From NCBI GenBank assembly GCA_963843375.1, contig CAWJKT010000016.1, positions 1 through 42,038 of the forward strand: a stretch of DNA of 42,038 nt, read 5' to 3'. The first letter of the stretch is position 1, and each line of letters begins with the position of its first letter. Position numbers and translations under genes: made by a program. Shown piece by piece: positions 14,694 through 40,911 of this stretch. Source of the stretch: an uncultured Pseudomonadota bacterium (GTDB taxonomy: Bacteria; Oederibacteriota; Muellerivitia; Muellerivitales; Muellerivitaceae). Under the pieces are notes generated by a model. That model had not been told where the DNA came from. It was given only the letters and a program-made list of their open reading frames with translations, and ran no database searches.

Positions 14694-14738
14694 TTCATCG
14701 CCTTTTTCTTTCAGGAAAGCCCGGGCAGTTAAACATTT

Positions 14739-15821: not shown

Positions 15822-16450
15822 GGTCGAAGCTTTCGGTGATTTCAATAAAACATAAGCGAAAATGTGATTATATTATATTTAAAGTGTTCCAAGGAAAGAT
15901 TATGAAATCATTCCCCTTTTTCACCCCTGCCGATGGATCAGGAATTATCAAATCACCCAGTTGCGGAAGGCATGTCGTATTATTTTCCATCGAATTGGAA
16001 TTACCCGTTTATTAAAAAGCAGGGACCTCCAAAACATCCAAGAATTCATTTTAATTTAAACCTTGCGGTTAAGCCCTTCGTTTTAGGGACGTTTATTTTT
16101 TTAGGGGGTTGTAGCGTTTGTTCTTCCATCAAACAAGTTGAAAATCAATCTTAAACTAGATGATGGGGCCCTTTTTTCTCCTCAATAGGGGTCCTGCTAT
16201 TCCGAAGTGGTCCACTCAAGTAGTAGGGTTTTTGGACAAAAATTTGGACTTATTAAAAAAAGCAGTTTGATTGATCTCCACCAGGATAATTCCTTGGTTA
16301 AGACCATCTGAAATTGAGGAGAAAACAAAATCCTTAAACCTTATTCGAGCTTTCTATCTCGTTACTCTTTTGTAAAACAGGCCAACAGGCTTGTCTCGTT
16401 ATTTTGGAAATACAAAGTTAATCCGCATACCCCTAAAATCGTTGATTTTG

Positions 16451-20412: not shown

Positions 20413-23400
20413 TCAGCGAACGATGAGGACTTTGAAAATTTTAATCGTCTGGGAATTCCCCACTATGGCCTTCACCCGGATGTAATAAAGCCCATCGGAA
20501 ACGGGTATTCCATCCTTATCTTTCAAATCCCACGAGAGGAAAGTTTTTCCAGAAAGTGGTTGAGATCCCTCCATTACCTTGCGAAATGCAATTGTGAAAA
20601 CATCCCAAATGAGATTGGCGCCCGGTGGACTTTGGAAATCCAATGAAACCGGTCCCCCGCCTTCGATAGGATTGGGATAAGGTGGTCCAATTACCACTTC
20701 CGTCATGGCCGGGGTCGGAATGCCGAAGGGGGTAAGGCTAATCGTCGGCGTCAAAGTAGCCGTCGGGAGAGGAAGAGGCGGTGTCTGGGTGGGTGTAAGA
20801 GTGATACTGGAAGTAAAGGTTTCGGTCAGCGTGTTAGTGGCCGAACGGGTGGGACTGGAGGTTGGAGTCATTGTCGTGGTACTCGTAAGTGTCGCCGTGT
20901 TGGTGAAAATGGCAGAGGATGTCGGGGTGGAAGTGAGGCTATTCGTAGGGGTACCAGCAGGCGTCAAGGTGGGAGTGAGGCTCAAGGTCATAGTCGTCGT
21001 CGAGGTAAAAGTGAAAGTGGCTGTAGAGGTGGTCGTCATGGTTGGCGAGAAGGTCAGGGTAGGGGTAGAGGAGGCCGTAAACGTCGAGGTGACGGTGGGA
21101 CTGAAGGTGTTGGTGAAAACCGGATAAGTGTCCCCAATGATCTGGCTCGTAAACGTGGCCGTGGGCTGGGTTCCAGTGGCCGAGGGGGTCGAAGTCGCTG
21201 TGCCGGTTGCTGTGGCGGTAGGTAGTGTGCCCGTGGCCGTTGGAATCAAAGTCAGAGTCGCCGTGGGTGAAGGGGTGAAGGTTGGCGTTGACGAAAAGGT
21301 TGGAGTCATGGTGGCACACCCCCCCGTGTTAACTTCCACCGGCCCGAAACCCATGGTCACCAAAGTACTTTGATCGCTGCTTTCGACCAATCCGATTTCG
21401 AGTGGTGCGGTCAGGGTTACGGTCGCCGATCCCAAACTGGACCAAGTTCCAAGTTCTTCAATGTAGGCCGTGTAGGTATTGCCCGATTGGACTAGGGCAT
21501 AATCTATCGGCTGGCCAATGCCATGCAGGGATACCGCAACCGAAGGGACTGCCCCGGCGGTCCCACGGTAGGTAAGCTCGATATAATCCAAAAGTACCGT
21601 AGAGACCATCACAAAAGGAGCATCGGCTGAAAGACCCGAACGGATCATGAGACCCGTTTTATCATTCGTTGTAAAAGTGGAGGAGCAGGGAGAAGCGCAG
21701 GCATAGGATACGGCGGTAATTGCCCCATTGCCGCACAAAGGTTGCCAAAGAAAATTGAAAGCGTCCGTACCCGTGTTTAATTCGTTCCCGGAACCAGAGA
21801 CGTAATAGTTTGAGCCGTCAAAGAGGGCAGTTCCCGCGGCCGGAACCGCGCCGATATCCTGGTCCGTCCAGGGAGGAGGCGCTGGGCCCAAGGTGGCGGT
21901 CATCGTGGCAGTGGCGGTGGTGGTCGCCGTGGAAGTGGGACTGCCGGAGGTGGCGGTCGGGGTAAATGTTAGGGTAACAGTTGGGGTCATTGTGACGGTA
22001 GGGGTGAAGCTGTTTGTGAAAGTAGGTGTCACCGTGGCCGTTGGCTCGGAAACGTAAACCACGTTCGAACAGGAGGCCTCCATCCCGCCCTGGTTGTTGA
22101 TGGCATCCGCGCTGATGTAATAAGTTCCTGCGGAGGGGGGTGTCCACACCAGCGTGTAGGGCGAAGTGGTGGAGGTGCCCACATACAGGTCGTTGACCAT
22201 AAAATCGACTTGGCCTACCGTGCCACCCGTATCCGAGGCAAGGGCCGTGAATGTGATGGGCGTAGCCGAGGGAAAGTAGCTTCCGGTCAAAGGTGAGGAT
22301 ATTTGGACCGTGGGCAGTGGATAGGCGCCTGTATAGGGAGTGTTCGGGAAGTTCTGGTTGATCTCCAGAGCGTTGTCGGCCGCAGTGACAGAAGCAGGGT
22401 CAACCCCGGTGGGCTGTCCCATAAAATTCACTGCGGGATTGGAATAGTTCAATATCCAGTTCCCCGGCTGATAGGCCATGATAGTGATAAAAGTGGTGCC
22501 CCCCGAGGCAAAACGGTAACCATAGTTGAAGCCGTTTCCCGAAGGCACGTCATCGGTCTGGCGGTCGTGGTGGCATCCCATGTTATGGCCAACTTCGTGG
22601 GAAAAGGCGATGTCCGCATACGGATAATAACACACGGTCGCAAACCCCGGTAATTGCCCTACCCCGGCCACGATTCCTCCCCCAGTCGTCGTGGCGGCCG
22701 AACCTACGAAAAGCGAAACGTAGTTCGCGCCATAAGTGGCCATCCATGCGCCAAGCTGTGGAAAATAAGCGGCGTTGGTCAGGTTGCCCAGGTCGGTGAT
22801 GACGTCGCCCGTCTCGAGGTAGGTGACCGGCTGGGTAGCCACCAGTTCCATCTCAGCGGTTACCCCGCTGTTATAAAAGGCCATATTCATGCCGGCCCAA
22901 TCCATGTCTATCAGGGTTTCCAGGGCCTCCGCGCCGCCCGCATTTTCCGCGGCGAGAGCCGTGTAAAGCACCATGATCTGACTGACTTTAAGGGATTGAG
23001 AGTTTGGGCATCCACTCTGGGTAGCCTGGGGATAAAAAGTCGGAACGCCTTGTGAGGCGACCCATTCGGCACCGGTGGGACCCGCTTTCTCGGGTCCCCC
23101 GTCCAACAGCACCTGGCCCGGGGCGGGATTGGTTTCAGAAATAAGGTGGAGGCCATTCTGAAGGTAGCGCACCTCGAATTTGTTGTGTCCAGGGACCCAG
23201 ACATCAGCTTGGAGAATTCCATCACGATAAGCCATGATCACCCGCCCGGTCTCTTGTCCGGGGATCGATCCCCAGACCACCCATCCCCCTTTCGGTCGCA
23301 CCCGAAGACGTTCCACGCTCCACTCGACTTGAACATCGTCGAACAGATTCAACTTGAATCCTGGATTCCAGCCTGGATGCTTAAACCGGCTTGGTAATCC

Positions 23401-23652
23401 ATCCAAAAGCGTCCGATCAAATTGAACATAACCTTCTCGACGGATTTTGCTCGGCAACGCGACCGGGCCCGCGGGTACCGGCATGGAATGAAAAAGTCCG
23501 GTCTGTCCCCCGTTTCCAGGAGCAGCCTCGGTGAGGACCGGAATACATAAGAAGGTCATTGCCCATATCAGGGATATCCTGGAGGAAGAAGCAATCTCCG
23601 GAAAAAAAAATCGAATAAGACGAAGAATCATGTTCCTCTTTAAAGTGTCCAT
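20413..23652 (-). CDS. Secreted reprolysin-like (M12B-type) zinc metallopeptidase with Ig-like domain, beta-sandwich domain, Thr/Pro linkers and T9SS-like C-terminal domain
   Basis: Signal peptide, prodomain, HEVGHNMGCHH with Met-turn TIMAY, Big-like domain (ALASDTGGTVGQVDF..PYTLVW), WTDQDIG..KTGLMIR domain, C-terminal YPNP..GLYYIRV..KVLIVR. Confidence 0.85.
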   Translation of the reverse strand: MDTLKRNMILRLIRFFFPEIASSSRISLIWAMTFLCIPVLTEAAPGNGGQTGLFHSMPVPAGPVALPSKIRREGYVQFDRTLLDGLPSRFKHPGWNPGFKLNLFDDVQVEWSVERLRVRPKGGWVVWGSIPGQETGRVIMAYRDGILQADVWVPGHNKFEVRYLQNGLHLISETNPAPGQVLLDGGPEKAGPTGAEWVASQGVPTFYPQATQSGCPNSQSLKVSQIMVLYTALAAENAGGAEALETLIDMDWAGMNMAFYNSGVTAEMELVATQPVTYLETGDVITDLGNLTNAAYFPQLGAWMATYGANYVSLFVGSAATTTGGGIVAGVGQLPGFATVCYYPYADIAFSHEVGHNMGCHHDRQTDDVPSGNGFNYGYRFASGGTTFITIMAYQPGNWILNYSNPAVNFMGQPTGVDPASVTAADNALEINQNFPNTPYTGAYPLPTVQISSPLTGSYFPSATPITFTALASDTGGTVGQVDFMVNDLYVGTSTTSPYTLVWTPPSAGTYYISADAINNQGGMEASCSNVVYVSEPTATVTPTFTNSFTPTVTMTPTVTLTFTPTATSGSPTSTATTTATATMTATLGPAPPPWTDQDIGAVPAAGTALFDGSNYYVSGSGNELNTGTDAFNFLWQPLCGNGAITAVSYACASPCSSTFTTNDKTGLMIRSGLSADAPFVMVSTVLLDYIELTYRGTAGAVPSVAVSLHGIGQPIDYALVQSGNTYTAYIEELGTWSSLGSATVTLTAPLEIGLVESSDQSTLVTMGFGPVEVNTGGCATMTPTFSSTPTFTPSPTATLTLIPTATGTLPTATATGTATSTPSATGTQPTATFTSQIIGDTYPVFTNTFSPTVTSTFTASSTPTLTFSPTMTTTSTATFTFTSTTTMTLSLTPTLTPAGTPTNSLTSTPTSSAIFTNTATLTSTTTMTPTSSPTRSATNTLTETFTSSITLTPTQTPPLPLPTATLTPTISLTPFGIPTPAMTEVVIGPPYPNPIEGGGPVSLDFQSPPGANLIWDVFTIAFRKVMEGSQPLSGKTFLSWDLKDKDGIPVSDGLYYIRVKAIVGNSQTIKIFKVLIVR
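20705..21310 (-). repeat. Thr/Pro/Ser low-complexity coding stalk, (T-x)n and TPT repeats
   Basis: About 200 codons of TPT/TAT/TFT repeats. They generate the Val/Gly-rich antisense shadow ORFs. Confidence 0.85.
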
Positions 23653-23670
23653 ACCTTCGAGGCTCCTACG

Positions 23671-24582
23671 TTAAAGCTCGCTTAAAATATCCGCTAACTC
23701 TGCCTCGCTTTGGTAACCCGTCGCGTCAATGATTTCTTTTCCATCGAGGAAGAAAGCGGTTTGGGGAAGCCCGTAAGTATGACCACCGGGAGTGGTGGGT
23801 ACCGCATATTCGTTCAAAAGCGCTTCGTTTTCGTCGGCGTTCACCCGGACCACGATGACTTGACCGGCGTAATCACTGGCGAACTGAGTGACCACGGGAG
23901 AATAGATTGTGCAGGTCGCGCACCAGGATGCCCAAAACTCCAACACAACCGGCACCGTAGTATTGGCGAGGATCTCGCTGAAATTGGCAGTTGTCCCAAT
24001 CACTACGGTTCCAGGTGGAATGGCTGTGGGCGTCGCAGTGACCGTTGGGGTAGCGGTGAAAGTCGAGGTGTCGGTTGGCGTATGAGTGGGAGTTGTCGTT
24101 TTGGTTCCCGTATCAATGGGTGTGGAAGTGGAAAGACTCGTAGGAGTGTCGGTCAAGACAAAGGTAAAAGTTGCTGTTGGAGTAACCGTACATGTAAAGG
24201 TTTGGGTAAAAGGAATGGCAATGGCCGTGGAACTAGGGGTCAGGGTGGGCGGAGTGGAGGTGAAGGTGACGCTAGGCAAAGCAACCGTGGATGTAAAGGA
24301 GGCAGTTGGCGTGGGTGAAAATACCGGCGGGACATAAGCTGTAGAACTGGGAGAAGGGGTTCCCGTCGAAACCGTCACACTAACAGTCGAGGTGGAAGTC
24401 GCGATTGCAGAGGGCGTCGAAACGAGGGTGGCTGTCAATCCGGGGGTAGAGGAATTATTTGGACTCACGGGTGTTGGATCGAAAGGGCTGAGGGGTGAAG
24501 TTTGATAAGATTTTTGGCAGTTCATTCCACAAACAGCCAAGACGGTCCAAACGGTAATATAAAAAGCCTTCATGTATTTCAA
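23671..24582 (-). CDS. Putative lipoprotein: Thr/Pro stalk plus C-terminal thioredoxin domain (WCATC)
   Basis: AAGGA RBS before TTG, signal peptide with Cys (AVCGMNC), long T/P linker, VVLEFWASWCATC..VRVNADEN..LPQTAFFLDGK. Confidence 0.85.
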   Translation of the reverse strand: MKYMKAFYITVWTVLAVCGMNCQKSYQTSPLSPFDPTPVSPNNSSTPGLTATLVSTPSAIATSTSTVSVTVSTGTPSPSSTAYVPPVFSPTPTASFTSTVALPSVTFTSTPPTLTPSSTAIAIPFTQTFTCTVTPTATFTFVLTDTPTSLSTSTPIDTGTKTTTPTHTPTDTSTFTATPTVTATPTAIPPGTVVIGTTANFSEILANTTVPVVLEFWASWCATCTIYSPVVTQFASDYAGQVIVVRVNADENEALLNEYAVPTTPGGHTYGLPQTAFFLDGKEIIDATGYQSEAELADILSEL

Positions 24583-24637
24583 AATTGAGTCCTTTCGGTT
24601 GCCCCTGTTAAATCCATGGTTCTAGGGCAGTCACTTT

Positions 24638-24666
24638 TATAGTGACCAGAGAAGGGACTTTATTCC
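24638..24666 (-). promoter_or_regulatory. Candidate ECF sigma promoter, copy 1 (thioredoxin-peptidase operon)
   Basis: Minus strand GGAATAA-agtcccttctctggt-CACTATA (N15), 55 nt upstream of the start at 24582. Confidence 0.75.
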
Positions 24667-24750
24667 AACAATGCTTGATTTATCTTTGAGAAATGAACAA
24701 TTGAATAACCGTGTTCAAGAATTCCAACTGCCAACCTTGGACCCGGTTTT

Positions 24751-26127
24751 TCACGGGTGAACGGCCATGAAACAGGCCGTCCCTCCAAGACTGATGGAGG
24801 ACAGCGCGGTTGGCGGAGTAGTGGTGATATTAGCCTCGTAAAGGACTTGGGCGAAATAACCTGGAATATAAGCGGTAGACCCATCCTTTGATAACCAGTC
24901 GTAGTGGACGTTATCGGTTGTGCTGTCGAACATTAATTGGTTGACGTAACTGTAGGTGTCTGTTGCCGTATCCACGCTGAATTCCTCTAAATAAGTATCA
25001 CCATCGGAGGCTACCCAGAGAGTGGACCCGTTGGAAGAAAGGGTATTGCCCCGGAACCCGAATCCTGAACCTCCGGTGAAAGTGGTGACCGTTCCAAATG
25101 TTGAGGTATTAATAACCTGGATCCCTCCGGAACTCCACATTGAAAGGAAGGCCCGGGTTCCATCCGCCGAAACCGAAATTCCTTGGGGATTGCCGCCCGT
25201 GGTCAGTGTAATCTCCTGTTTCGTCGCAAATCCAGAGGAAGCCGGGTTGCTGTTGATGACGGCCACCAGCGAGGGACTGCCATAAGGGCCGCTCTCAGGC
25301 CACCACAGTTGGTTTCCATTCGGCGTAAATGCCGCCTCACCGATGAGACTTGTCGTGAAACCGGTGATATCCGCCACCACCTGCTGATAGTTGGGGCTGG
25401 AGGGTTGGATATTGAGAACTTCCATGCCACACCCGTCTGAGAAATAAGCGTAGGCTCCCGCAGGATCAATCCATACCATACCGACTGCGGTGCTGTCGAG
25501 GCGCAGATAGGTGACTTGGTTTTCATTGGAACTGGTTGGATCGGTATTGATGACGGCCAATCCGCTTAGACTTCCGCCGAAAATATTATTGGCGACGACG
25601 TAGAGCTCTTTCCCGTTCGGGGTGAAGGCCATGTTATTGATAGACGTGGCCTGGATGGGAATATTTAGGACGATGGCCCCGCTATTGATAGCCTGCACGT
25701 TAACCGTTGTGGAATTGGACACATAAACCGTTCCGGTTAGAGCCGAAGGGGTTCCTGAAACGCTGACGGGGGCAGTGGAAACACAGGCATTAAGGGGTGT
25801 TCCGGTGGGGGTCGCAGTGCCCGTGGATGTGATCGTTGGGCTTGCCGTAGGCGTTCCCGAGAAGGTTACGGTGGGCGTGAGCGTGGGGGTCGAACTGGGA
25901 ACAGGAGAGGTCGTCTTGGTCGGGCTGGGTGTGGACGTTCCGGTGGATGTGGGCGTTGGCGTAACAGTCTGGGTCGGACTGGACGTGGCCGTTCCTGAAA
26001 CCGTCCAGGTCAAGGTCGGCGTCGAAGGCGCTGGGGGCAAGGAAGGAAGGGGTCTTCGCTCGCAGCTCCATAAATCCATCATCACGAGAATCAAACCCGC
26101 GAAAAGAAAATTAAAAAATATTTTCAT
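24751..26127 (-). CDS. Putative lipoprotein: Thr/Pro stalk plus YncE-like beta-propeller
   Basis: GGAG RBS before ATG 26127, signal peptide ending LWSC. Blades MAFTPNGKELYV, AAFTPNGNQLWW, ISVSADGTRAFL, LSSNGSTLWV, LSKDGSTAYI. Confidence 0.8.
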   Translation of the reverse strand: MKIFFNFLFAGLILVMMDLWSCERRPLPSLPPAPSTPTLTWTVSGTATSSPTQTVTPTPTSTGTSTPSPTKTTSPVPSSTPTLTPTVTFSGTPTASPTITSTGTATPTGTPLNACVSTAPVSVSGTPSALTGTVYVSNSTTVNVQAINSGAIVLNIPIQATSINNMAFTPNGKELYVVANNIFGGSLSGLAVINTDPTSSNENQVTYLRLDSTAVGMVWIDPAGAYAYFSDGCGMEVLNIQPSSPNYQQVVADITGFTTSLIGEAAFTPNGNQLWWPESGPYGSPSLVAVINSNPASSGFATKQEITLTTGGNPQGISVSADGTRAFLSMWSSGGIQVINTSTFGTVTTFTGGSGFGFRGNTLSSNGSTLWVASDGDTYLEEFSVDTATDTYSYVNQLMFDSTTDNVHYDWLSKDGSTAYIPGYFAQVLYEANITTTPPTALSSISLGGTACFMAVHP

Positions 26128-26160
26128 GACCAGTCTCCGAATGTTTTTTCCCACCGTTGA

Positions 26161-26189
26161 TATAGTGACAAGCGGATGAGCTTTATTCC
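26161..26189 (-). promoter_or_regulatory. Candidate ECF sigma promoter, copy 2
   Basis: Minus strand GGAATAA-agctcatccgcttgt-CACTATA (N15), 33 nt upstream of ATG 26127. Confidence 0.75.
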
Positions 26190-26303
26190 CATTTCTCAAT
26201 AAGAAATCTTTTAAGAATAACTTCCCGTTAATCATATCCCCAAACAGGTGACCACCAGGGTTAAAACAAACTCGGGCTTAAGTGACAACAATGACTCCCG
26301 AAC

Positions 26304-26332
26304 TATAGTGATCGGCAAAACCCTTTTATTCC
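26304..26332 (-). promoter_or_regulatory. Candidate ECF sigma promoter, copy 3
   Basis: Minus strand GGAATAA-aagggttttgccgat-CACTATA (N15), 143 bp upstream of copy 2. Confidence 0.7.
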
Positions 26333-26481
26333 GTTTACTTTAAAAATATTCCACAATAATGTACGTTCTCAAAAACCATCCAACGATATAAAATATGGCC
26401 CCGTTAGCCATTTGATGCGGCGAAACACGACACTTTTAAAAAGGCCAAAACCATACCGGTTCGCCAAAAGGCTTGAACGCC

Positions 26482-26865
26482 ATGATTCTATTTGTGATTC
26501 GACAGCTTTTAAATCGGTCCTTATTCCTTTCCGGGCTTCTTTTCTTTCTCATCCTCACAAGCACTTCCCTTTCCTTTCAAACACCGACTGCTGGTTCCTG
26601 TTTTGTGTACCCTTCTCCCGCCACCGGCAGCTCAGTCTGGGTGGTTTACACTATGCCCCAGAACGGATCGGTGGAGGTGCGAATTTACAACGAAGCAGGG
26701 GATTTGGTTTTAGAGAGTACCGACCAGCAGGCAACCGGCGTCCAAGAAACGGGAATAAATATTTCTTACTTGCGCAACGGGGTCTATCTTTGCCAGGTCC
26801 TCCTAACGCCGGAGGGTGGATCGACTCAAGCCTTAAAGATCTTTGAGTTCTCGGTTGTGCGATGA
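26482..26865 (+). CDS. Small exported protein made of a signal peptide plus one T9SS-like C-terminal (sorting) domain
   Basis: Hydrophobic signal, then FVYPSPATG..VEVRIYNEAGDLV..LRNGVYLCQV..FSVVR, matching the type A CTD pattern YPNP..IY...G..V..GxY. Confidence 0.7.
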   Translation: MILFVIRQLLNRSLFLSGLLFFLILTSTSLSFQTPTAGSCFVYPSPATGSSVWVVYTMPQNGSVEVRIYNEAGDLVLESTDQQATGVQETGINISYLRNGVYLCQVLLTPEGGSTQALKIFEFSVVR

Positions 26866-28157
26866 AAGTCCAGTGGTGGAAAGGCATTCTAAGAATCCCA
26901 TGGTTAGTATTTCTTTATTCGCCCGTTCTTTCCTTTGCCGACCAAACCACCTACACCACTGCATTTATTCCCTATCCATTGGAAAGCCTGGACTATTCCC
27001 CCAGAGCCGAAGCCATGGGCTCGGCTTTTACTTCAGTCGAGGGCGACTCCGCTTGCCTCTTTTATAATCCAGCCGGGTTGGCGGGCGTTTTAAATCCGGA
27101 AATTTCTATCGTTCACCAATCTTGGCTCGCCAACCTCTCGCAAGAAAACTTGTCCGGAGCCCTTTCGATTGGAAAAGCGGGGACCCTGTCCTTCGGAGCC
27201 GATTACCTCAGCTACGGAACTTTGCAAGGCTATGACGCCAATGGCTTTTCCACCACCACCTACCAGCCCTTTCGCACCTCTCTCGTAATGGGTTGGGGAT
27301 GTTATCTTTTCCCTCGTTTCGCCATCGGATTCTCCCTGAGGGGACTAGACCAGTCTCTATTCACGGGAGTGGACACAATGGCTTCGGCGATCGGCATCGG
27401 ATTCCTTTGGCGCCCCTTACCCCGCTTGAACTTGGGAGGCTTTTACACTTTTCTTTATAGCGATGCCGAAGCGGACTTGGGCCAGCTCAAATGGGGCGCT
27501 TCCTATAAACTTCCTGTTTTTGGCAAGAGCTCCGCCCTTTTATCAGTGGATTTTTCCATGCCGCCCGACGGGGTTTACCAGATTCAATGCGGCGCGGAAC
27601 AGTCCATTTTCAACATCCTGACCTTCCGACTGGGTAATCAATGGGACCTGAAGGACAATGAAATTGCAGGATTTCGGGAATTCACAATGGGGTTGGGCCT
27701 GCATTGGAATGGACTGGACCTGGACGCAAGCTTTGTCCCGGATGGGGACTTGGGCTCCTCCCAAATGCTTGGCTTGACCTACCGTTTTCCTTCGGAAACA
27801 CCCCATCTCCCTCCCGCCGTTCCGCTTAATTTTATTCCCCCGTCGGAAATAACTCCCGCCGACAAGGCGCTGGATGTTAAGGTACAGTTCTCAAAAGGCC
27901 CGGGGATGGCGGCTCCCAGTCTCTCTCCCGAAACCCAGAAAGAGCTGGATATTCTGGGGAAACAAGTACAGGACCATCCCCAGGACGTCACGTCTTGGGC
28001 TCGGTTGGGAAGACTGTATTGGCTCTCCAACCAACCTGAGTATGCCGTTCAGTGTTTTGAGGAAATTCTCCGTCTTCAGCCTGGGGACGCTTCTTTAAAA
28101 GCCTGGTTGGATCGGTACCATCAACAACACCCCCCGCATTCCAAGTCCGGGGAATAA
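26862..28157 (+). CDS. PorV/PorQ (UPF0164/FadL-like) outer-membrane barrel with C-terminal TPR
   Basis: PRAEAMGSAFTSV.GD..LFYNPAGLA signature, amphipathic strands ending LGLTYRF, Pro linker, then TPR (SWARLGRLYW..AVQCFEEILRLQP). Confidence 0.8.
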   Translation: MKVQWWKGILRIPWLVFLYSPVLSFADQTTYTTAFIPYPLESLDYSPRAEAMGSAFTSVEGDSACLFYNPAGLAGVLNPEISIVHQSWLANLSQENLSGALSIGKAGTLSFGADYLSYGTLQGYDANGFSTTTYQPFRTSLVMGWGCYLFPRFAIGFSLRGLDQSLFTGVDTMASAIGIGFLWRPLPRLNLGGFYTFLYSDAEADLGQLKWGASYKLPVFGKSSALLSVDFSMPPDGVYQIQCGAEQSIFNILTFRLGNQWDLKDNEIAGFREFTMGLGLHWNGLDLDASFVPDGDLGSSQMLGLTYRFPSETPHLPPAVPLNFIPPSEITPADKALDVKVQFSKGPGMAAPSLSPETQKELDILGKQVQDHPQDVTSWARLGRLYWLSNQPEYAVQCFEEILRLQPGDASLKAWLDRYHQQHPPHSKSGE

Positions 28158-28179
28158 TTCGGGCAACTGAAACACTATA
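28151..28179 (+). promoter_or_regulatory. Candidate ECF sigma promoter, copy 4 (autoregulatory position)
   Basis: GGAATAA-ttcgggcaactgaaa-CACTATA (N15), 12 nt upstream of the ECF start. The TAA is also the stop codon of the PorV-like gene. Confidence 0.75.
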
Positions 28180-28191
28180 CAGAGGGAAACA

Positions 28192-28764
28192 TTGGCGGAC
28201 GAAAAGGAACTGGTCCAAAAAATTCTGGCGGGCGATCCGAAAGCCCAGGCCTTTTTCTACGCGGAAAACGCGCCCCGTCTTTATCCGGTTTGCGTCCACT
28301 TCCTGGGATACCAGGATCCGGACGCGGAGGATATTGTCCAGCAAACTTTTCTTATCGCCCTTCAGAAATTGAGGGCCTTTGAATTCCGGTCCAGCCTTTA
28401 CACCTGGCTGGATCACATTTGCGTGAACCTTTGCTATGAAAGATTGAGAAAAAGGAAAAGGGAGCTGGCGTCCCTGTCGGAGGACTTGGAAAAACTCACC
28501 CAGCCCCAGGCCGGATCATTGGACCACCAGCAAATGGTTGAGGATGAGAAAAAAAGAAGGCTTGAGATTTTGCGGAATCTCACCAAATCCATGAGCGAAA
28601 AATGCCGGGAGGTTCTGGTTATGAGGGATCAAAAAGGCGAAAGTTACATCGATATCGCTCGCAGCCTCAAGATTCCCATTGGGACCGTGATGTCCCAATT
28701 GGCCCGGTGCCGGAAAGCCCTTCGGCACATGATGGAAAATGAAATCAAGGGAGCCCATTCTTGA
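28192..28764 (+). CDS. ECF (sigma-70 group 4) RNA polymerase sigma factor
   Basis: Region 2 DAEDIVQQTF..FEFRSSLYTWL and region 4 SYIDIARSLKIPIGTVMSQLAR. GAGGG RBS before TTG. Confidence 0.93.
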   Translation: MADEKELVQKILAGDPKAQAFFYAENAPRLYPVCVHFLGYQDPDAEDIVQQTFLIALQKLRAFEFRSSLYTWLDHICVNLCYERLRKRKRELASLSEDLEKLTQPQAGSLDHQQMVEDEKKRRLEILRNLTKSMSEKCREVLVMRDQKGESYIDIARSLKIPIGTVMSQLARCRKALRHMMENEIKGAHS

Positions 28765-29552
28765 ACTTGATCGAGGAATATTTTAAAAGAGATTTGACGG
28801 AAACCGAGGAACAAGAACTCGCGGTTTGGCTGGAATCCCATCCGGAAGATTCGGTTCGTTTCGCCCAGATGATGAAAAGTTTTTATGAACAAACAGGCCT
28901 TCCCGAACCCGCCTGGCCCCATTCCCCTGATCCCACTCAGGTTTCCGCGCCTCTGGTGAAATGGCTGATCCCCCTGGTTTTACTTTTTATGGCTTTCGGT
29001 GTCTACCTTTGTCGGTCCAAAATCACCGCCCTTTTCCAACCTTCCTCCGCACCGGTCATTGAAACGGCCCCGGCCCCATCGATTGAGGTCCCGGTTCAAA
29101 AGCAGAATCCAATTCAAGAGGAAGTGCCTGTTCCCACTTCCATCCCGGAAGAAACTCCGGTAAAAAAGCCTTTACCCGTCCCCACTCCCTTCCCCAACAA
29201 TCCCAAACCGGTAGCGATTCTTCCTCTTTTACCTATTCCTCCCCTCGCTCCCCTTCCAACCGCCCGACCTACGGAACCCGTTTCAACAGGAAGGATATAC
29301 GAACGTCTTTCAGTAATGGTCAACTTGCCCCAAGGCGGGCTAGCCACGGTGCGAGTCGTCGACAGCCAGGACAACGATATCCGGCTTCTTTACGCCGGTA
29401 TATTGCCGGCGGGCCAGCAAACTTTCACCTGGGATGGGAAAACGGCCCAAGGGGCTTTAGCTCCCCCAGGCCACTACTTCGTGGAAATAAAATCCGGAGC
29501 GGATGTTTTGCGCCAGGAAATCCATTTGCAACAGGACTCATCGGCACATTAA
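28761..29552 (+). CDS. Putative transmembrane anti-sigma factor with Pro-rich linker and C-terminal FlgD-Ig-like domain
   Basis: Overlaps the ECF stop. N-terminal helical ASD-like segment (IEEYFKRDLTETEEQELAVWL), one TM, Pro linker, then VRVVD..IRLL..G.QTFTWDGK...G..APPGHYFVEI. Confidence 0.75.
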   Translation: MNLIEEYFKRDLTETEEQELAVWLESHPEDSVRFAQMMKSFYEQTGLPEPAWPHSPDPTQVSAPLVKWLIPLVLLFMAFGVYLCRSKITALFQPSSAPVIETAPAPSIEVPVQKQNPIQEEVPVPTSIPEETPVKKPLPVPTPFPNNPKPVAILPLLPIPPLAPLPTARPTEPVSTGRIYERLSVMVNLPQGGLATVRVVDSQDNDIRLLYAGILPAGQQTFTWDGKTAQGALAPPGHYFVEIKSGADVLRQEIHLQQDSSAH

Positions 29553-29693
29553 TTGGGTAGATGGCAATGATCCCAAGGCCCTTTGTTCATCCCGTTTTTT
29601 CCGGATCAGTAACAGCTGGCATTTTAACGCCCTTTCATCATGGAATAACTTGGCTCCCCGCTTCGGTTCACAGGTTATCAAGCTTTCATCAGG

Positions 29694-31823
29694 CTAACGG
29701 TCGACAAGAACTTTTAGGATTGTGGTTTGATTGACGGGACCGGACACCCTGACCTTTAAATAATAAAGTCCGTTGGCCACTGGCCTTTGCCATTGATCCT
29801 CCAAATTCCAAACCAAGTTGAAATTATTTCCCGGAATTAGATTTGACCCGTTCAAAACCTTCCGAAAGACCGTCGTAAAGACACTCCATTCGATCGTCGA
29901 GCCTGTGGGAGACTGGACCTGAATGGTCACTGGTGCTGGGCCATAAACCGGATTGGGATAAACCGGACCAATCACAACACCTCTTGAATTGGGGGTTAAA
30001 GTAGGTGTGGAAGTAAAGCTCAAAGAGGGGCTTTGTATCGGTGAATTTGTTGCGGTCTCGGTCATTGTAACGGTAGAACTCAGGGTAGGCGAATTGGTCG
30101 GCGTGGAAAAGCCGGTCGGGGTCGATGTTAGTGTCACCGTAGCCGTAGGAGTCGAACTCGGCATTACGGTCGCGGTAGGGGTGGGCGTGAAACTATTTGT
30201 CTGAGTCAAGGTTCCAGTCGCTGTAAGTGTTGCGGTACCAGTCATGGTTGATGTCGGGGTGTTGGTTGCGGTTTTGCTAGCTGTCGGGGTTTGGGTTAAA
30301 GAAGCGGTAGAGGTAGCTGTCCTGGACGGGCTGTCCGTAGGGGTGAAGGTGACCGTTGGAGTTCCGGTAAACGTAGGGGTACCCGTCGCGGTATAAGTCG
30401 GAGTATTGGTTGAACTTCCGGGTTGGGGAATAATCTGAATCGCGTTAATTTGGGCGTTGTTTTCACTGCCGTTAGTGAAAACCAGGACGATCTGGCCGTT
30501 GGCGTTGGGCGCAATACTATTGTAAACCTCGTTGACCGCGATAAATTCCCCGCCTGCGTTAGCAAAAATATCGAAATTTGTGGCTTCGGTGGTCCCGTTT
30601 ATGGAATAGTTGAATTCCCTGTCGCCGGATGCCGTAAAGTAATCCTCCGCGAATTTCAGGGTCACCTGGTAATTGGAACCGGTCGGCACGCTGAAAGCAT
30701 ATGTCACTCCCGATCCAGTAGCAGTGTTCAGGTAACGGTTGTACTGGTAAAGCTGCGAGTCCGAGGTGTTGGAAACGGTAGTGGCGGCGTAGGCCGGCAG
30801 GCCGTTCTCAAAGCCGAAATTCGTGTCCGCCAGCCAAGTAATGCCACTACTCGGGCTCACGTAATTGCTGCTATCCCCGCAGGCCACGTACCATGAGCTT
30901 TGAACCACCGGAGTGGGTGTGGGTGATCCCTGCTGGTAAACCCTGACATAGTCCACCAGCATCGTCACCGGAAAAACGGTGGTTGCGTTCGGCGCTCCCG
31001 TGCCGGCATCACCCCCGATGGCCATATTCAAAATAATATATTCCGGCTGGATGTAGGGCCATCCTCCCGATTCGTTGTCCGTTTCATACAATTGCCCGTC
31101 CACAAAAAACTGGACCATGCTCGCGGGGCTCGAGGTGCTCAACGCCGCAAAGGTATGGTAATCCGTGTTATAGCCAATCGTGCCGGGTCCCACCAAGTTG
31201 TATTGGCTTGTTTCACTCACCTCCCCCGCTGTACCGAAATGCAGGGAACCCATGTTGATGTTCAGTTGGGACGGCGTGGCCCCAGCCCCGAAGTTTTCCA
31301 TGATGTCGGTTTCGCCACAGGCGGGCCATCCCACTGTTGAATAATTGGACCCCAAAGTCCAAAAAGCCGGCCAGGTTCCCACTTCATATGGCATGTGGAC
31401 ACGGGCGACATAATAGGTATTAGCCTGGTTGGCTCCATATTGCTGCAAGCCGGAGGTATCGATACGAGCTGAATGGTAGTCCCCCGCCATGCCGTTATTT
31501 CCACCCGGATCGGTGGCGATAATCGCCAAAGAGGACCCGTCCACCGCGTTGGGATCGGACACAATCTGGCAATTGGTCACTCCATAAGAGGCGCTGTAAT
31601 ACTCCAGTTCGGCGTTCCCTTCCCCGCTGCTGTTGGTTTCGATATTCCAATTGGCCGGGTTTGGAAGGTTTCCCGCCGTCCCATTAAACTCGTCGCTCCA
31701 GGCAAGACCATAACCTGGCGGAACGCCGTCCCAACTGCCCGCCCAAATTTCGCCTTTGAAAGTGAGGAAAAGCAGAAAGGAAAAACCTAATATTTTTGTT
31801 TTTTTGGAGAGGAACAATTTCAC
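29694..31823 (-). CDS. Secreted GH16 (laminarinase-like) glycoside hydrolase with malectin domain, Thr/Pro stalk and T9SS-like C-terminal domain
   Basis: WSDEFNG, GTWPAFWTLG, WPACGETDIME (ExDxxE), malectin YQVTLKFAEDYF..GDREFN..FDI, C-terminal YPNP..GLYYLKV..KVLVDR. GAGGT RBS before GTG 31823. Confidence 0.9.
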   Translation of the reverse strand: MKLFLSKKTKILGFSFLLFLTFKGEIWAGSWDGVPPGYGLAWSDEFNGTAGNLPNPANWNIETNSSGEGNAELEYYSASYGVTNCQIVSDPNAVDGSSLAIIATDPGGNNGMAGDYHSARIDTSGLQQYGANQANTYYVARVHMPYEVGTWPAFWTLGSNYSTVGWPACGETDIMENFGAGATPSQLNINMGSLHFGTAGEVSETSQYNLVGPGTIGYNTDYHTFAALSTSSPASMVQFFVDGQLYETDNESGGWPYIQPEYIILNMAIGGDAGTGAPNATTVFPVTMLVDYVRVYQQGSPTPTPVVQSSWYVACGDSSNYVSPSSGITWLADTNFGFENGLPAYAATTVSNTSDSQLYQYNRYLNTATGSGVTYAFSVPTGSNYQVTLKFAEDYFTASGDREFNYSINGTTEATNFDIFANAGGEFIAVNEVYNSIAPNANGQIVLVFTNGSENNAQINAIQIIPQPGSSTNTPTYTATGTPTFTGTPTVTFTPTDSPSRTATSTASLTQTPTASKTATNTPTSTMTGTATLTATGTLTQTNSFTPTPTATVMPSSTPTATVTLTSTPTGFSTPTNSPTLSSTVTMTETATNSPIQSPSLSFTSTPTLTPNSRGVVIGPVYPNPVYGPAPVTIQVQSPTGSTIEWSVFTTVFRKVLNGSNLIPGNNFNLVWNLEDQWQRPVANGLYYLKVRVSGPVNQTTILKVLVDR
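29990..30420 (-). repeat. Thr/Pro/Ser low-complexity coding stalk
   Basis: TPT/TAT repeats between the malectin domain and the C-terminal domain. Confidence 0.85.
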
Positions 31824-31992
31824 TGGTAACCTCGACAAAGGATTTTATCAAATTCTTCGCCGGAGGAGCTCAGTGGAATTCATCGGGCGCCCAAAAGAGG
31901 GGACGCAGGAGCCGAGGTCTAAGAATAGAGGAATAACCCAAAGGAAAAGGTTCCGCCTTAAATTTCCAAGACGGGCATTTTAATTTAAAAGT

Positions 31993-32286: not shown

Positions 32287-32673
32287 TCATGAAACAACTT
32301 GATCCTTAAGGCTTATCGTTTTGTCCAAGTAGTTCTTTAAAGTCTCCAAATCTTCAGGCCTTATCATGACAAAACGGAGGCCCGCACCCGTCACATTGGC
32401 CCACACCACTTCGGCATAAACAACCAATGGTTTAACTTTAGGTGGAAGGAAAATATTAAAACGCAAAAGACTGTTCAATGTTAATTGTTGGTCCACCGCC
32501 ACATACATTCCGCCCAGGCTCAAATCCATGATTTCCGCTGGTTTAGCTGTTTTTCGCCATTCCTCAATGCTTTGGAGTTCCCGCTCGTCTTCCGTTAATC
32601 GGAATTGAACCGGTAGTTTCACCGAAATCCGAGGATGAACCCGTTTTTCCATGAACATTTTAGCGTCAATCAT
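32287..32673 (-). CDS. Single-domain PilZ protein (c-di-GMP effector)
   Basis: RVHPR (RxxxR), DLSLGG (DxSxxG), AEVVW..GLRF. Confidence 0.9.
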   Translation of the reverse strand: MIDAKMFMEKRVHPRISVKLPVQFRLTEDERELQSIEEWRKTAKPAEIMDLSLGGMYVAVDQQLTLNSLLRFNIFLPPKVKPLVVYAEVVWANVTGAGLRFVMIRPEDLETLKNYLDKTISLKDQVVS

Positions 32674-32762
32674 TTGACCCTTCTCCCTTTTCCCGCGCGT
32701 GGGATGATTTTAAAAACCCTTGTTTTTCAATCCCCCAAAACAGTTGAAAAAAATCTGGCATT

Positions 32763-33113
32763 TCAAAACTTCTCAGCGGCTTCCCGTTCGTTCTTAAGTA
32801 TTTGGAACAAACCGGGAAGGTCTAAAAGATCAAGCACGTTGTAGATATCCTGGTTCACTCCCGTGAGTTTGATGTCGCCCTTGTTTTTTCGAACGTCCTT
32901 GATGAAACCGACCAGCACGCCTATTCCGGCGCTGGAAATGTAGGTAAGTTTTTCAAAATTGATAATGATTTTATATTGTTTTTTTCTAAAGAATTCCTGA
33001 AGCATGTCGTCAAATGCCCCGACCGTGTTGATATCCAAAACACCCTCAACGTCCATCACGGATACCGCCGTATTGGACATGGCTGACCGCGAAGCCAGAA
33101 CACAACTATTCAT
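32763..33113 (-). CDS. STAS-domain anti-sigma-factor antagonist
   Basis: EGVLDINT, IINFEKLTYISSAGIGVL with the conserved phosphorylatable Ser. Confidence 0.9.
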   Translation of the reverse strand: MNSCVLASRSAMSNTAVSVMDVEGVLDINTVGAFDDMLQEFFRKKQYKIIINFEKLTYISSAGIGVLVGFIKDVRKNKGDIKLTGVNQDIYNVLDLLDLPGLFQILKNEREAAEKF

Positions 33114-33622
33114 GAAAGACCCCCCATTCGCCTGAAGTTGGAACATTTGAATTTTTAACGTTTAACCTCGTATGAACAAAAAAGTCCTGTCAAGGATTTC
33201 TGATTCACATTTCGAAAATTACAAATTAACTATGTATTATTTTTTGGAGAGGCATTTTCACGAAGGCATTCGTGGGAAGGGAAAATACTTCACTAATATT
33301 AACCGGCACTTCCCGTCTTTTGCAATTGAATCGTAGTTTTTTTGTTCATGGACTACAAGAAAAATCTCGGTAAATACTTAAACCCTATTTCAATCTTGAA
33401 AAAGCCCTTTCATCCCTCGTCCTTGCTGACGAATCATCCAAGTCTCATCAAATTGTGGGATTTTTAAAGGATTTCGAGTGGCCCAAAGGGAGATTCCATC
33501 CGCCAGTCTTGCCTTCAGCGGGGGAAAGAAGCAACATAAACTGCAACTGATAAGCCCGCTTTCCCTAAAACCTTTCTTAAAGAAGCCGGCTGAACGGTTG
33601 TTCCAATTTTAAAGGGAGCCTG

Positions 33623-34414
33623 ATGAAACGCCTGATATCTCTTCTTTTGGCTGCCATTTTTGTCATTTCCTGTAGTAATAATAATAGTGCTAACTCCACT
33701 ACCCCAACTTTACCCGGCGGCGGAAACGGCAGCGAAGGCCCAGGAGGGAACGGGGGTGGAGTGACTTTCTTAACCTCGCCTATGCTGGAGGCTGCCATTG
33801 TGGATAACACTCTTGCAGTTTCCACTACTCCTACCATCGAAGCAGATGTAAACATTGCCGCATCCTCAGGCCCCGTGACCAATGCGGCAATCACCTTGTC
33901 CGGTCCAGTCGTCGGCAGCCTCGCGGTGACTTTTTTGGGATCCACTTCCCTTCCCGTTAACTTTAATGGCGGCGTCAGCCTCGTCCCTTTTGGCAGTTAC
34001 ACCGCCACCGGATGGACTTATGCGGTGGGCGAACCTTATACGGTGACCGCTTCCTTCGGCGGAGCCACCTATACCGCTTCTATTACCGCCGTAGGGAACG
34101 TCACCGTTCAAACTGGCGGCGTGGGGACGGCCGTGACTTGCTCCTGGACCAACGCCGTTGCCACCTCCTCCGCGAATCCGCTGAATATCAGCCAATTTAT
34201 CGCAACGAACTCATCAAACGCCACCCTCTATTCCGATCCCGCCACCTTAGCGGCTCCCTACCTTACTTCTCCAGTAACCATTTCAGCTTTTTCCCTAACT
34301 GGGTCCGTGGTGGATGTTTCCCTGACCACCGGAACCATCCTTACTTCCGCTTTCCCGGGAAGCTTTTCGCAATCTTATATTTTATCCAGCTCACAGGTTC
34401 AAACCTTATACTGA
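33623..34414 (+). CDS. Hypothetical Ser/Thr-rich beta-rich lipoprotein
   Basis: GGGAG RBS, MKRLISLLLAAIFVISC lipoprotein signal, Gly/Asn tether. Confidence 0.75.
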   Translation: MKRLISLLLAAIFVISCSNNNSANSTTPTLPGGGNGSEGPGGNGGGVTFLTSPMLEAAIVDNTLAVSTTPTIEADVNIAASSGPVTNAAITLSGPVVGSLAVTFLGSTSLPVNFNGGVSLVPFGSYTATGWTYAVGEPYTVTASFGGATYTASITAVGNVTVQTGGVGTAVTCSWTNAVATSSANPLNISQFIATNSSNATLYSDPATLAAPYLTSPVTISAFSLTGSVVDVSLTTGTILTSAFPGSFSQSYILSSSQVQTLY

Positions 34415-34461
34415 TTTCTAGCCTCGTTCCATAAAGTCGACGATAAAGCGCCAAGGTAAAT

Positions 34462-35598
34462 ATGACTCCCAAAAAAGATTATTACGAACTATTAGGCATC
34501 TCGCGCGCCGCTAGTGCGGATGAAATCAAGAATGCTTTCCGAAGCCTGGCGAAAAAGTACCATCCGGACGTCAACCCCAACAACAAAGGGGCCGAGGAAA
34601 AATTCAAGGAAATCAACGAGGCCTATGGGGTCCTATCCGATCCCAAAACGAAATCCGAATACGACCAATTCGGGCACGCGGGAGTGGGAGCCGGAGGTTT
34701 TCGTCCCCCGGGTGCCGAAAATGTTACCGATGATGAGGGTGATATCAACGATGTTTTCAGTCAATTCTTTGGGAACAGAGCAAGAGGCCGTTCAACACCC
34801 CCTCGAAGACAAGCTGAAACGGGCAACGACCTCCGTTTTGACTTGGAGGTCACGTTTGAAGACGCCGCTTTTGGGACAACCCGTGAAATCCGGTTTCGCA
34901 AGCTTTCGATCTGCGAGATTTGCCATGGCTCCGGGGCGGTGGCCGGTTCAGGGCAAGTGGTTTGCCCGACTTGCCATGGGTCAGGTCAGATTCAAGAATC
35001 CCAGGGCTTTTTCATCACCACCCGGACTTGCAGCCGTTGCAACGGTCATGGGCAGATACCCGGTTCCCCCTGCCCAACTTGTACCGGAAATGGCCGCCTT
35101 GAGAAAGACTGTTTTCTTTCAGTGAAAGTACCTGCAGGGGCGGATGAGGGCTCTCGCCTCCGGTTTCGCGGCGAGGGAGAAGCGGGACTCAATGGCGGAC
35201 CCGCGGGGGATCTTTTCGTATATCTGCATGTCAAAAAACATGAATTCTTTACACGGGAAGGAAAAGACCTTCATTGTGAGATTCCCGTTAACCTTGTCCA
35301 GGCCGCTTTAGGCGCCGAAATCGAAGTCCCTACCTTGGAAGGACCCGTTAAAATGAAGATACCCTCCGGCACCCAGACCGGCCTAATTTTCCGTTTAAAG
35401 GATAAGGGTATTCGGCCCCCCAACGAAAATGCGCCGGGCCATTTATTTGTGAAGGTCTCGGTGGTGGTTCCAACAAACCTTACCCATGAACAAAGGATAA
35501 AGCTCGAGGAACTAAAAGACCTTTTGACAGAAAACAATTCACCACCCATCACCGATTTCATGAATAAAATGAAAAGATATTCTTACCGAAAATATTAG
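34462..35598 (+). CDS. dnaJ: Molecular chaperone DnaJ (class A)
   Basis: J-domain with HPD, G/F region, four CxxCxGxG repeats, C-terminal domains. Confidence 0.95.
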   Translation: MTPKKDYYELLGISRAASADEIKNAFRSLAKKYHPDVNPNNKGAEEKFKEINEAYGVLSDPKTKSEYDQFGHAGVGAGGFRPPGAENVTDDEGDINDVFSQFFGNRARGRSTPPRRQAETGNDLRFDLEVTFEDAAFGTTREIRFRKLSICEICHGSGAVAGSGQVVCPTCHGSGQIQESQGFFITTRTCSRCNGHGQIPGSPCPTCTGNGRLEKDCFLSVKVPAGADEGSRLRFRGEGEAGLNGGPAGDLFVYLHVKKHEFFTREGKDLHCEIPVNLVQAALGAEIEVPTLEGPVKMKIPSGTQTGLIFRLKDKGIRPPNENAPGHLFVKVSVVVPTNLTHEQRIKLEELKDLLTENNSPPITDFMNKMKRYSYRKY

Positions 35599-35819
35599 AT
35601 TGCCCTCTTTTTGGCCAATTTTAAAAAGTCAATCGCGACCCATAAAAAGACCCGTCTTTAGTTTTATAAACTCCAGCGTTAAAACAGTTTGAATTGTGAC
35701 CGTTTTAACCTTACCGATACGAACAATTTACCGAAACGTTTCTTGGGAGAAAAGCCTATGTGAGTACCGTCAGTTTTAATAGTCTTCCTTTTCAATCAAC
35801 CTTTTTAAAAGGAACTACC

Positions 35820-36341
35820 ATGACCCCTCATGATCGGTCTTCCATTGAAACCCTTTCCGCTAAAAACGATTCCTCCTTTCCGTCTCGCATTGACCTTTTC
35901 AACGCCTTGGAGAACATCCTTTGGTTCTGGCCCGACCTTTTCATCCAGAGCGCGGAATTCGGCGAAAACCTTTCAGAACATCTTTCCCTCGCCCGTTCCG
36001 TCCGGCTGACGGGAACCCATGAGGGTTTTGTGGTTCTGCGAACGACACCGGGCTTGGGGGCAATGATGGCGGAAAAACTTTTGGGACCCGGGGAAACAGA
36101 TTCTCGCTCTGCGGACGCTTTTGCAGAATTCGTGAATATGTTTTGCGGTTATCTCATGGCCAGAATCCGCGAAAAAGGCAAGGCCTCCTTCCGACATTTT
36201 CTGCCTGTGAATACCGCCAAAAAAGATTGGCCCACCATGGAACCTAACGCCACCCTGGTGGTAGGCGTCCAAGACCACCTCTTGGAAATAAGTCTTTGGA
36301 CCAGTCCTTCCACCGTCGAAGAGCCAAGCGAAAAACCATGA
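35820..36341 (+). CDS. cheX: CheX-like chemotaxis phosphatase
   Basis: DAFAEFVNMFCG (ExxN) motif and LTG..EGFVVL strand. AAGGA RBS. Overlaps cheA by ATGA. Confidence 0.7.
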   Translation: MTPHDRSSIETLSAKNDSSFPSRIDLFNALENILWFWPDLFIQSAEFGENLSEHLSLARSVRLTGTHEGFVVLRTTPGLGAMMAEKLLGPGETDSRSADAFAEFVNMFCGYLMARIREKGKASFRHFLPVNTAKKDWPTMEPNATLVVGVQDHLLEISLWTSPSTVEEPSEKP

Positions 36342-38404: not shown

Positions 38405-38913
38405 ATGAGGAAGCCCTCTTGGAGATCGCCTTTCCCGGCACCTATTTCGTCTTCCAAATGAGAGATAAATTATTCGGTTTCGAAGCACGCTGTCTTTGGG
38501 AAATTTCCACTACCGTGGCCCTTTCACCCCTTCCCCTTTCCTCAGTTCGTTTGACCGGTATGACGCACCTGCACGGGAAGATTATTCCCGTAGTGGACCT
38601 TTGCTCGCTCCTGGAACTGCCCTTCCTGGAGCCGCGCCTGGCGCGCGGTTTCGTTGCCGTGAAACCGCCCGGCTGGAACGCTCCGGCCGGTTTTTACGCC
38701 GGAAACATTTTGGGATTCGAAAAATTCACGGATGCGGAAATCGAGGCTTCGCCTGAAGGCGCCCTCCCTTTCCTCAGGAGAAGAACCGGCTCCCCCGAAA
38801 GACCCGTTGAACTTTTGGATATGGGCCGGCTTTTTGCAGGGGTCCAGCAAAATCTGCTGGCGGGCGTCCTTCGGGACACCACTTTTAACTTTAAAGGAGC
38901 AAATCATGTTTGA
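38401..38913 (+). CDS. cheW: CheW-family coupling protein
   Basis: [25 protein letters not shown] pattern, located between cheA and the MCP. Confidence 0.85.
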
Positions 38914-40483: not shown

Positions 40484-40525
40484 CTTTTTTACGGTATTTA
40501 TTTTTATTTGTTTGAAGGAGGAAAT

Positions 40526-40909: not shown

Positions 40910-40911
40910 TA

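Follow-up and report, generated by a model that had tools for sequence, protein, structure and literature searches.

A bipartite promoter very probably read by its own ECF sigma factor, beside a candidate PorV-based signalling cassette in FCPU426 bacteria

Which factor reads a DNA element that recurs four times within a few genes of an uncultured bacterium, and what does it control? We analysed a 42,038-nucleotide stretch of contig CAWJKT010000016.1 (the window) from an FCPU426 bacterium, in which a sequence-only reading had picked out four copies of GGAATAA-N15-CACTATA around the gene for a sigma factor of the extracytoplasmic function (ECF) type. All four copies lie at the positions and on the strands given there, and each faces a gene start. 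One stands 12 nt from the sigma TTG (28192) and another 64 nt from the ATG of a thioredoxin lipoprotein (24573), while the ATG of a propeller lipoprotein (26127) follows a tandem pair, 33 nt from the proximal and 176 nt from the distal copy. The copy before the sigma gene (28151..28179) overlaps the final codons of a PorV-like gene. These four are the sole exact matches in the 4.05-Mb source assembly (32 contigs, 80% complete), and 100 dinucleotide shuffles produced none. We conclude that the motif is very probably a promoter read by the ECF sigma factor encoded at 28192; an autoregulated ECF promoter as such is of an ordinary, known kind.

The comparative evidence comes from 98 sigma matches across 32 of 99 phylum genomes (26 of the 30 in the family). 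The 94 regions fetched span 95 foreign sigma matches and, with four regions of the source genome, hold 101 sigma hits, of which 98 are of normal length and were aligned (loci are labelled L; genomes G, with G000 the source; contigs of the source genome C1, C4, C6, C11, C12, C15 and C18). Seventeen sigmas at >57% identity to that of the window were taken as orthologues and form a clade with it in a quick tree (SH-aLRT 99). The element precedes the gene in 17 of 17, 12–15 nt from the start codon and with unrelated spacers, which in three orthologues are 14 nt long. Because other genomes carry the same element before sigma orthologues, the objection that the motif was derived post hoc falls away. 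That objection was what spoke for chance or a functionless local duplication, an explanation also contradicted by the shuffles and by a reversed control pattern that matched family genomes twice against 52 times for the motif; we regard it as refuted and give it next to no credence. Tandem pairs recur in L041, L043, L047, L048, L049 and L050, and the segment between the window's two tandem copies showed no stable fold that would mark a small RNA (z -0.6 to +2.0).

The sigma factor has sigma2 and sigma4.2 domains, no sigma3 and a length of ~190 aa, as befits an ECF (group 4) sigma. Of the 98 family sigmas, 88 have an exact GAATAW in the 250 nt upstream; for other open reading frames (ORFs) the figure is 165 of 821. 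The -35 is common to all paralogues, and the -10 is non-canonical and varies by sigma clade. If the promoter were family-wide, served by a number of paralogous sigmas or a single master paralogue, and this sigma had no private regulon, that would account for this shared -35 before nearly all family sigmas, for the many -10 variants that differ by one or two bases, and for three exact sites in genomes that lack a clade sigma. The variants themselves argue otherwise. We could anchor the -10 in 84 of the 88 loci with a -35 (four were dropped) and searched every locus for its particular combination of spacer and -10 hexamer. This gave 25 further exact matches in 21 of the 84 loci, against a permuted mean of 2.7 and maximum of 10 (0 of 1000 permutations reached the count), and 61 matches with one mismatch against a permuted 15.9. 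Matches to a locus's own variant numbered 0.298 per locus versus 0.007 for foreign variants. Within the clade, variants shift in concert: in L055, L057 and L054 the deviant -10 of the locus recurs at its further sites, as does the 14-nt spacer in L048 and L049. The gap from motif to sigma start is 11–19 nt in 55 of 84 loci. From a first position weight matrix, which contained three 14-nt-spacer sites out of register, only the top matches were used.

Site presence also follows this sigma clade across genomes. The pattern GAATAW-N15-CACTATW, scanned over 31 family genomes, gave 52 matches in 15 of them, a single related genome holding as many as 10 exact sites. Of the 52, 49 lie in the 15 genomes with a clade sigma, mostly ahead of stalked lipoproteins, and three in the remaining 16; a genome from the same genus, 99% complete and without a clade sigma, has none. 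With own-variant matching and this co-occurrence both against it, we consider a family-wide promoter without a private regulon quite improbable, and return to a promoter read by its cognate sigma.

Residues of the sigma family point in part the same way. In the accessible text of Todor et al., Met at RpoE position 171 was measured to give T at -31, and their Table S1 lists Arg76 as the determinant of -8. With RpoE numbering anchored on residues that they name, Met171 is present in 93 of 98 family sigmas, together with GAAT. At residue 76, His goes with T at -8 in 17 of 18 cases and Gln with A in 29 of 33; Arg goes with G in 16, A in 11 and T in 2. An unguided mutual-information scan was dominated by clade structure, and we tabulated only residue-base pairs, of which 76/-8 and 84/-12,-13 are published pairs. 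Self-regulation through a GGAA-type -35, as proposed from the sequence, is supported by comparative footprinting, own-variant matching, genome co-occurrence and, in part, this published code, with which residues 171 and 76 agree and Asn84 mostly does not, kinship being a confounder.

Could the motif instead be an operator to which a different regulator binds, or belong to housekeeping promoters? A sigma70-like -10 is present in its reverse complement, and a sigma70-like site (10/12) at 26282-26309(+) overlaps the distal copy on the opposite strand, where it could serve the neighbouring genes for a type IX secretion system (T9SS) C-terminal domain (CTD) protein and a PorV-family barrel. The overlap recurs in 0 of 16 orthologous loci scanned, and a conserved sigma70-like promoter for the CTD-PorV pair at this place was rejected. 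The motif is moreover directional, has two parts, points without exception at the start of a gene or RNA, and varies with sigma residues, all of which make an operator or housekeeping element very improbable. As a sigma promoter, the copy at the sigma gene would start a predicted 6-nt leader that clips the Shine-Dalgarno sequence; combined with the TTG start, this suggests a low-gain loop.

What would the sigma factor control? The sequence-only reading had it drive itself, its anti-sigma, the propeller lipoprotein and a thioredoxin-peptidase operon. Sigma, anti-sigma and the two lipoproteins are credible targets; the peptidase would be reached by read-through only, across an 18-nt gap to the thioredoxin-lipoprotein gene in which no terminator is listed, and no peptidase was found behind the motif in orthologous loci. 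As had also been noted, neither the GH16/malectin gene nor the CTD-PorV genes have a copy with ≤1 mismatch upstream. A divergent gene 1.9–3 kb upstream of sigma has one or two copies pointing at it in 13 of the 17 orthologous loci, and is a stalked lipoprotein wherever it can be read (L041 has an assembly gap); the remaining four comprise two contigs that end early and two loci without the cassette described below. The lipoprotein payload differs among loci, from propellers to a serpin-like tail (read from sequence) and NHL or LRR repeats. Among 42 distinct exact sites read in our own and related loci, seven stand before sigma, 24 before exported proteins (signal peptide or lipobox judged by reading; three are the window's own sites), two before structured RNA and nine before other or unclear ORFs. 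In G051 and G052 (L153, L171), exact sites are followed after ~75-95 nt by a conserved short ORF of unassigned family, and other short ORFs occur in L172 and L180. In L046, a ~22-codon tandem repeat separates the CTD gene from the lipoprotein promoter, ~1.9-2.9 kb upstream of sigma.

The regulon had been drawn as a local set. The neighbours remain credible members; the confinement to them does not hold, given two probable distal members and the multiple sites in relatives. At spacer 15, the source genome has four sites with one mismatch beyond the four exact ones; allowing zero or one mismatch, spacer 16 gives one site and spacers 13, 14 and 17 none. One-mismatch sites on C4 fall within ORFs and were set aside. 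Another such site, at C18:47280, precedes a lipoprotein gene (region C18:47280-48431(+), L182), a probable distal target because its product is homologous to the motif-led lipoprotein of L043 (39% identity, E 1.6e-67). Of 29 stalked lipoproteins picked in the source genome, two have an exact motif, both in the window.

The other probable distal member is an RNA. Behind a one-mismatch site at C1:183287 come ~125 nt closed by a terminator (z -3.6). An alignment of eleven related sequences shows compensatory changes in a 5' hairpin, and its covariation score was reached by 0 of 500 shuffles, the structure having been derived from the same rows. A covariance model built without the promoter found 24 copies of 120-145 nt in 14 of 99 genomes, all within the family. 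Ten of the 24 directly follow GGAATAA-N15, 11 follow a canonical-looking ECF promoter with CGTC, and three follow variants; for the 13 matches new to this search, the numbers are four, six and three. The copy beside the L057 cassette carries that cassette's deviant -10, and tandem copies with differing promoters occur in G062, G063 and G071. RNA 5' ends right after the motif offer our best proxy, and a proxy only, for the transcription start; a look through public RNA runs returned none for positions 23500-29700 of the window. The C1 RNA is probably a distal member of the sigma's regulon.

This structured RNA is previously undescribed, and Rfam gave no match near the gathering score for the copies in L149 and L151. 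We discarded a Csr/Rsm sponge, as CsrA is found in 0 of 31 family genomes; Hfq was not found in the source genome, which is 80% complete. A duplex scan of 4559 start regions returned no convincing target, with the thioredoxin lipoprotein ranking 73rd and sigma 4185th. SigmaE-dependent RNAs exert negative feedback on envelope genes, and by analogy our guess is that this RNA might do so too. Elsewhere, C11:209147-209170 (L195) matches the G070 RNA over 24 bases of its conserved 3' part; the match runs antisense to a mobile-element-like ORF and is probably due to chance.

The sequence-only reading had left out that the sigma gene belongs to a cassette of four conserved genes, which probably form its input pathway (Table 1). 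Near the 101 sigma hits we counted at least 75 anti-sigmas, at least 73 barrels and at least 63 CTD proteins, in several gene orders; these counts are minima, since contigs end nearby and ORFs were called by simple means. The putative anti-sigma, so named from its position and anatomy, is encoded by a gene that overlaps sigma by 4 nt. Its immunoglobulin-like (Ig) domain is homologous to the cassette CTD (hhalign 80%) and has six strands, without the YPxP strand of a complete seven-strand T9SS type A CTD: the YPxP first-strand motif occurs in 0 of 75 anti-sigmas versus 47 of 63 cassette CTD partners.

Table 1. Features of the window and of the source genome that are discussed in the text (positions are those of the window unless a contig is named)
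Feature	Position	Strand	Evidence or remark
Motif copy before sigma gene (autoregulatory promoter)	28151..28179	+	read as -35 to -7; predicted +1 ~28186, 6-nt leader
Motif, distal copy of tandem pair, propeller lipoprotein	26304..26332	-	exact match
Motif, proximal copy, propeller lipoprotein	26161..26189	-	predicted +1 ~26154
Motif copy before thioredoxin lipoprotein	24638..24666	-	predicted +1 ~24631
ECF sigma factor, 190 aa, TTG start	28192..28764	+	Sigma70_r2 and r4_2; TIGR02937 above cut-off; Met171, His76, Glu84 (RpoE numbering)
Putative anti-sigma, 263 aa: N-terminal helical domain, one transmembrane helix, 95-aa Pro-rich linker, C-terminal FlgD-type Ig	28761..29552	+	FlgD_ig; hydropathy
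Anti-sigma Ig domain, six strands	29286..29549	+	AF2 model pLDDT 83; Foldseek FlgD
PorV/PorQ-family outer-membrane barrel, 431 aa; C-terminal Pro linker, conserved strand, TPR	26862..28157	+	NF033709 98.5 bits (cut-off 90)
Conserved alternating hydrophobic strand in barrel tail	27858..27902	+	disordered in monomer model; at anti-sigma Ig interface in complex model
Signal peptide and bare T9SS type A CTD (~127 aa)	26482..26865	+	Por_Secre_tail and TIGR04183 above cut-off; putative cognate barrel ligand
Lipoprotein, 458 aa: lipobox, Thr/Pro stalk, YncE/lactonase-like beta-propeller	24751..26127	-	TIGR03866 weak; Atlas features 0.93
Lipoprotein, Thr/Pro stalk, C-terminal thioredoxin (CxxC)	23671..24573	-	PF00085
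Secreted M12/reprolysin-like metallopeptidase: Ig domain, stalk, CTD-like tail	20413..23652	-	possible read-through target
Structured RNA with terminator	C1:183135-183259	-	L181, L216
Structured RNA, second copy	C6:199632-199773	-	L203

The barrel scores below the cut-offs of the PorV and PorQ equivalogs. Its model folds like a T9SS shuttle, the top Foldseek matches being chains of two T9SS translocon entries (E 1.6e-12). In its tail, the strand pattern is kept in 60 of 73 tails, with a nearly invariant Phe. A profile search with the tail over 1.84 billion proteins was swamped by TPR repeats and uninformative as to range; in a PDB sequence search with the tail, the best 60 of 198 matches were TPR proteins, with no solved complex of this kind among them, and a PDB sequence search with the barrel gave no match. 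CTD proteins are 107-161 aa long in the window sigma's clade, where they amount to a tag without passenger or sensor domain, and 348-762 aa in most paralogous cassettes. The source genome holds three such paralogous cassettes, at C11:291140-295227, C12:7102-11191 and C6:199860-203000. Those on C11 and C12 each have their own -10 variant, and the C11 anti-sigma is split into two ORFs by a frameshift or sequencing error; on C6, sigma and anti-sigma read as a single ORF, and this type lacks the motif. The genome also has an M50 protease, a SprA-like gene in two or more ORFs at C15:110180-115226(+) and 24 PorV-family matches; the latter two point to a T9SS-like system outside Bacteroidota.

Convergent with the anti-sigma gene, 29694-31838(-) encodes a secreted GH16-like/malectin protein with a stalk and CTD-like tail and no motif; large CTD cargo genes hold its position in L041, L042 and L044. 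Positions 1-16000 and 32287-41679 of the window are ordinary, with genes for aromatic amino acids and cmk/S1, among them several ORFs that look broken, and with PilZ, STAS, DnaJ and a chemotaxis cluster.

How might barrel and anti-sigma be connected? Strand complementation between them had been predicted before any complex model was seen. A model of the barrel tail (strand and TPR) with the anti-sigma Ig scored 0.78, and the best of three controls 0.00. The mark for this score, which 116 of 157 solved pairs and 2 of 215 mismatched ones attained, is only roughly applicable here because our own alignments were used for the model. Runs agree in at least 85% of contacts, with a partner pLDDT of at least 83. 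Tail residues 12-26 are modelled against Ig residues 2-19 and 66-79, which sets the tail strand against the first and last Ig strands while the TPR covers the Ig tip. That the tail strand completes the Ig sheet is our reading of these modelled contacts, since the output lists contacts and not hydrogen bonds. A mirror-tree comparison of Ig and tail gave r 0.71 (0 of 1000 permutations), a value that we attribute to common descent and do not use in support of the contact.

The promoter could be assigned correctly and the Ig domain still serve otherwise, as a working or decoy secretion tag that samples export directly by being pulled or cut while secretion is running or jammed, like FlgM export, with the barrel a mere CTD shuttle. 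The homology of the Ig to the cassette CTD fits that picture, as do the SprA-like gene and the PorV-family matches. Against these stand the first CTD strand, missing from the Ig in 75 of 75 anti-sigmas, and the dedicated strand and TPR that are kept on the barrel tail and modelled onto the Ig. We think direct sampling of export unlikely and favour, with moderate confidence, cell-surface signalling in which the PorV-family barrel acts as transducer of the ECF sigma.

In this signalling mechanism, the sigma would drive itself and its anti-sigma, a positive loop with a built-in brake, as well as the two stalked lipoproteins nearby and probably the peptidase by read-through, the C18 lipoprotein and the C1 RNA. 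The CTD-PorV pair upstream would be the input, and is probably made from another promoter because no motif copy precedes it. The anti-sigma would hold sigma at the inner membrane and span the periplasm with its Pro-rich linker, presenting an Ig that would amount to a secretion tag minus strand 1; the barrel's C-terminal strand, placed in the periplasm, would complete its sheet, and the TPR would clamp it. The cognate CTD protein, exported and docked on the barrel's outer face, would report a state; a change of that state would loosen the tail, the incomplete Ig would be cut, and a site-2 protease would free sigma. The direction of this switch is taken by analogy from FoxA protecting FoxR. With no sensor domain on the clade's CTD protein, the signal is most likely barrel occupancy (secretion or outer-membrane/envelope status) rather than a sugar. 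An output of surface or periplasmic lipoproteins, thioredoxin and peptidase fits an envelope response. Motif, cognate sigma, targets and cassette draw on sequence comparison, and the contact of tail and Ig on modelling.

Several observations weigh against this account. The -10 carries C at -11 in 79 of 84 loci, unlike the usual T; sigmas with Asn84 mostly have A at -12 (14 of 20), where the published code has G; and the clade member L054 has Arg76 yet keeps T at -8. The genomes are kin, so that counts and residue-base tables are not independent. With one -35 common to all paralogues, cross-talk between paralogous sigmas is likely. The orthologues L053 and L056 have no barrel and CTD genes nearby, and the match to SprA does not reach the cut-off and is divided between two ORFs, with three partial matches, the best at 7.5e-35. 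Targets vary freely between genomes and hence give no clue to the signal.

Which known systems come closest? As described in the accessible part of PMC7826278, ECF26/ECF207 promoters have a GGAATAAA-like -35, lie directly before the sigma gene and are accompanied by a single-transmembrane anti-sigma at +1. The window shares these features, its -35 being GGAATAAA and its anti-sigma putative; the -10 there is GTT or GTC, whereas here it is CACTATA with clade variants. The terms FlgD, PorV and FCPU426 do not occur in the searched part of the supplement to PMC7826278.

The TonB-dependent systems FecA-FecR-FecI and FoxA-FoxR-FoxI, in the accessible text of PMC11637429, likewise combine a barrel bearing a periplasmic appendage, a membrane anti-sigma and an ECF sigma; in Fox, the appendage binds the anti-sigma at its C-terminal domain and shields FoxR from proteolysis. 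The corresponding contact here is modelled only (0.78 versus 0.00). Our barrel is of the PorV family and not a TonB-dependent receptor with an N-terminal signalling domain. TonB receptor barrels have 22 strands. The appendage here is a C-terminal strand and TPR, the anti-sigma ends in a truncated T9SS tag (only FlgD_ig was found) and not in FecR/STN, the clade's barrel gene has no promoter copy, and the output is lipoproteins and RNA, not iron uptake. The system as proposed works like cell-surface signalling, yet is not a member of the TonB-dependent family.

In Porphyromonas PorA-PorV-PorXY-SigP, according to the portion of PMC7712824 available, a small PorV-using CTD protein influences an autoregulated ECF sigma, as here; a two-component system relays the signal there, and the link that crosses the periplasm is given as unknown, whereas a dedicated barrel tail and anti-sigma would here form a direct one. 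T9SS shuttle-CTD pairs of the PorP/SprF type, in the accessible part of PMC12618676, also have a barrel gene adjoining a CTD gene in dedicated pairs; ours differ in that the CTD is type A-like, the barrel belongs to the PorV family and has a putative signalling tail, and the pair is linked to genes for sigma and anti-sigma. We found no such cassette, promoter or RNA in the literature, most subscription papers lying outside the search.

Whether FCPU426 bacteria have a whole class of trans-envelope signalling built from type IX secretion parts is, on our estimate, an even call. In such a class, a dedicated PorV barrel would sense its cognate CTD protein on the outside and donate a beta-strand to an incomplete tag on an anti-sigma on the inside. 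Up to seven paralogous channels per genome would share one -35, be told apart by a -10 code of three to four bases, and each drive stalked lipoproteins or secreted enzymes, which are interchangeable, as well as copies of the new RNA of their own. The analysis gives an uncultured phylum a promoter code and a regulon. As a natural library, the paralogues lend themselves to work on -10 specificity and on orthogonal switches, and E. coli can serve for tests of the sigma-promoter pairs and of the two small domains, with no need to grow the source organism. If true, the mechanism would add a second kind of barrel transducer to the TonB receptors, a signalling route so far undescribed, and would give a concrete answer to how a T9SS-docked surface protein signals across the periplasm.

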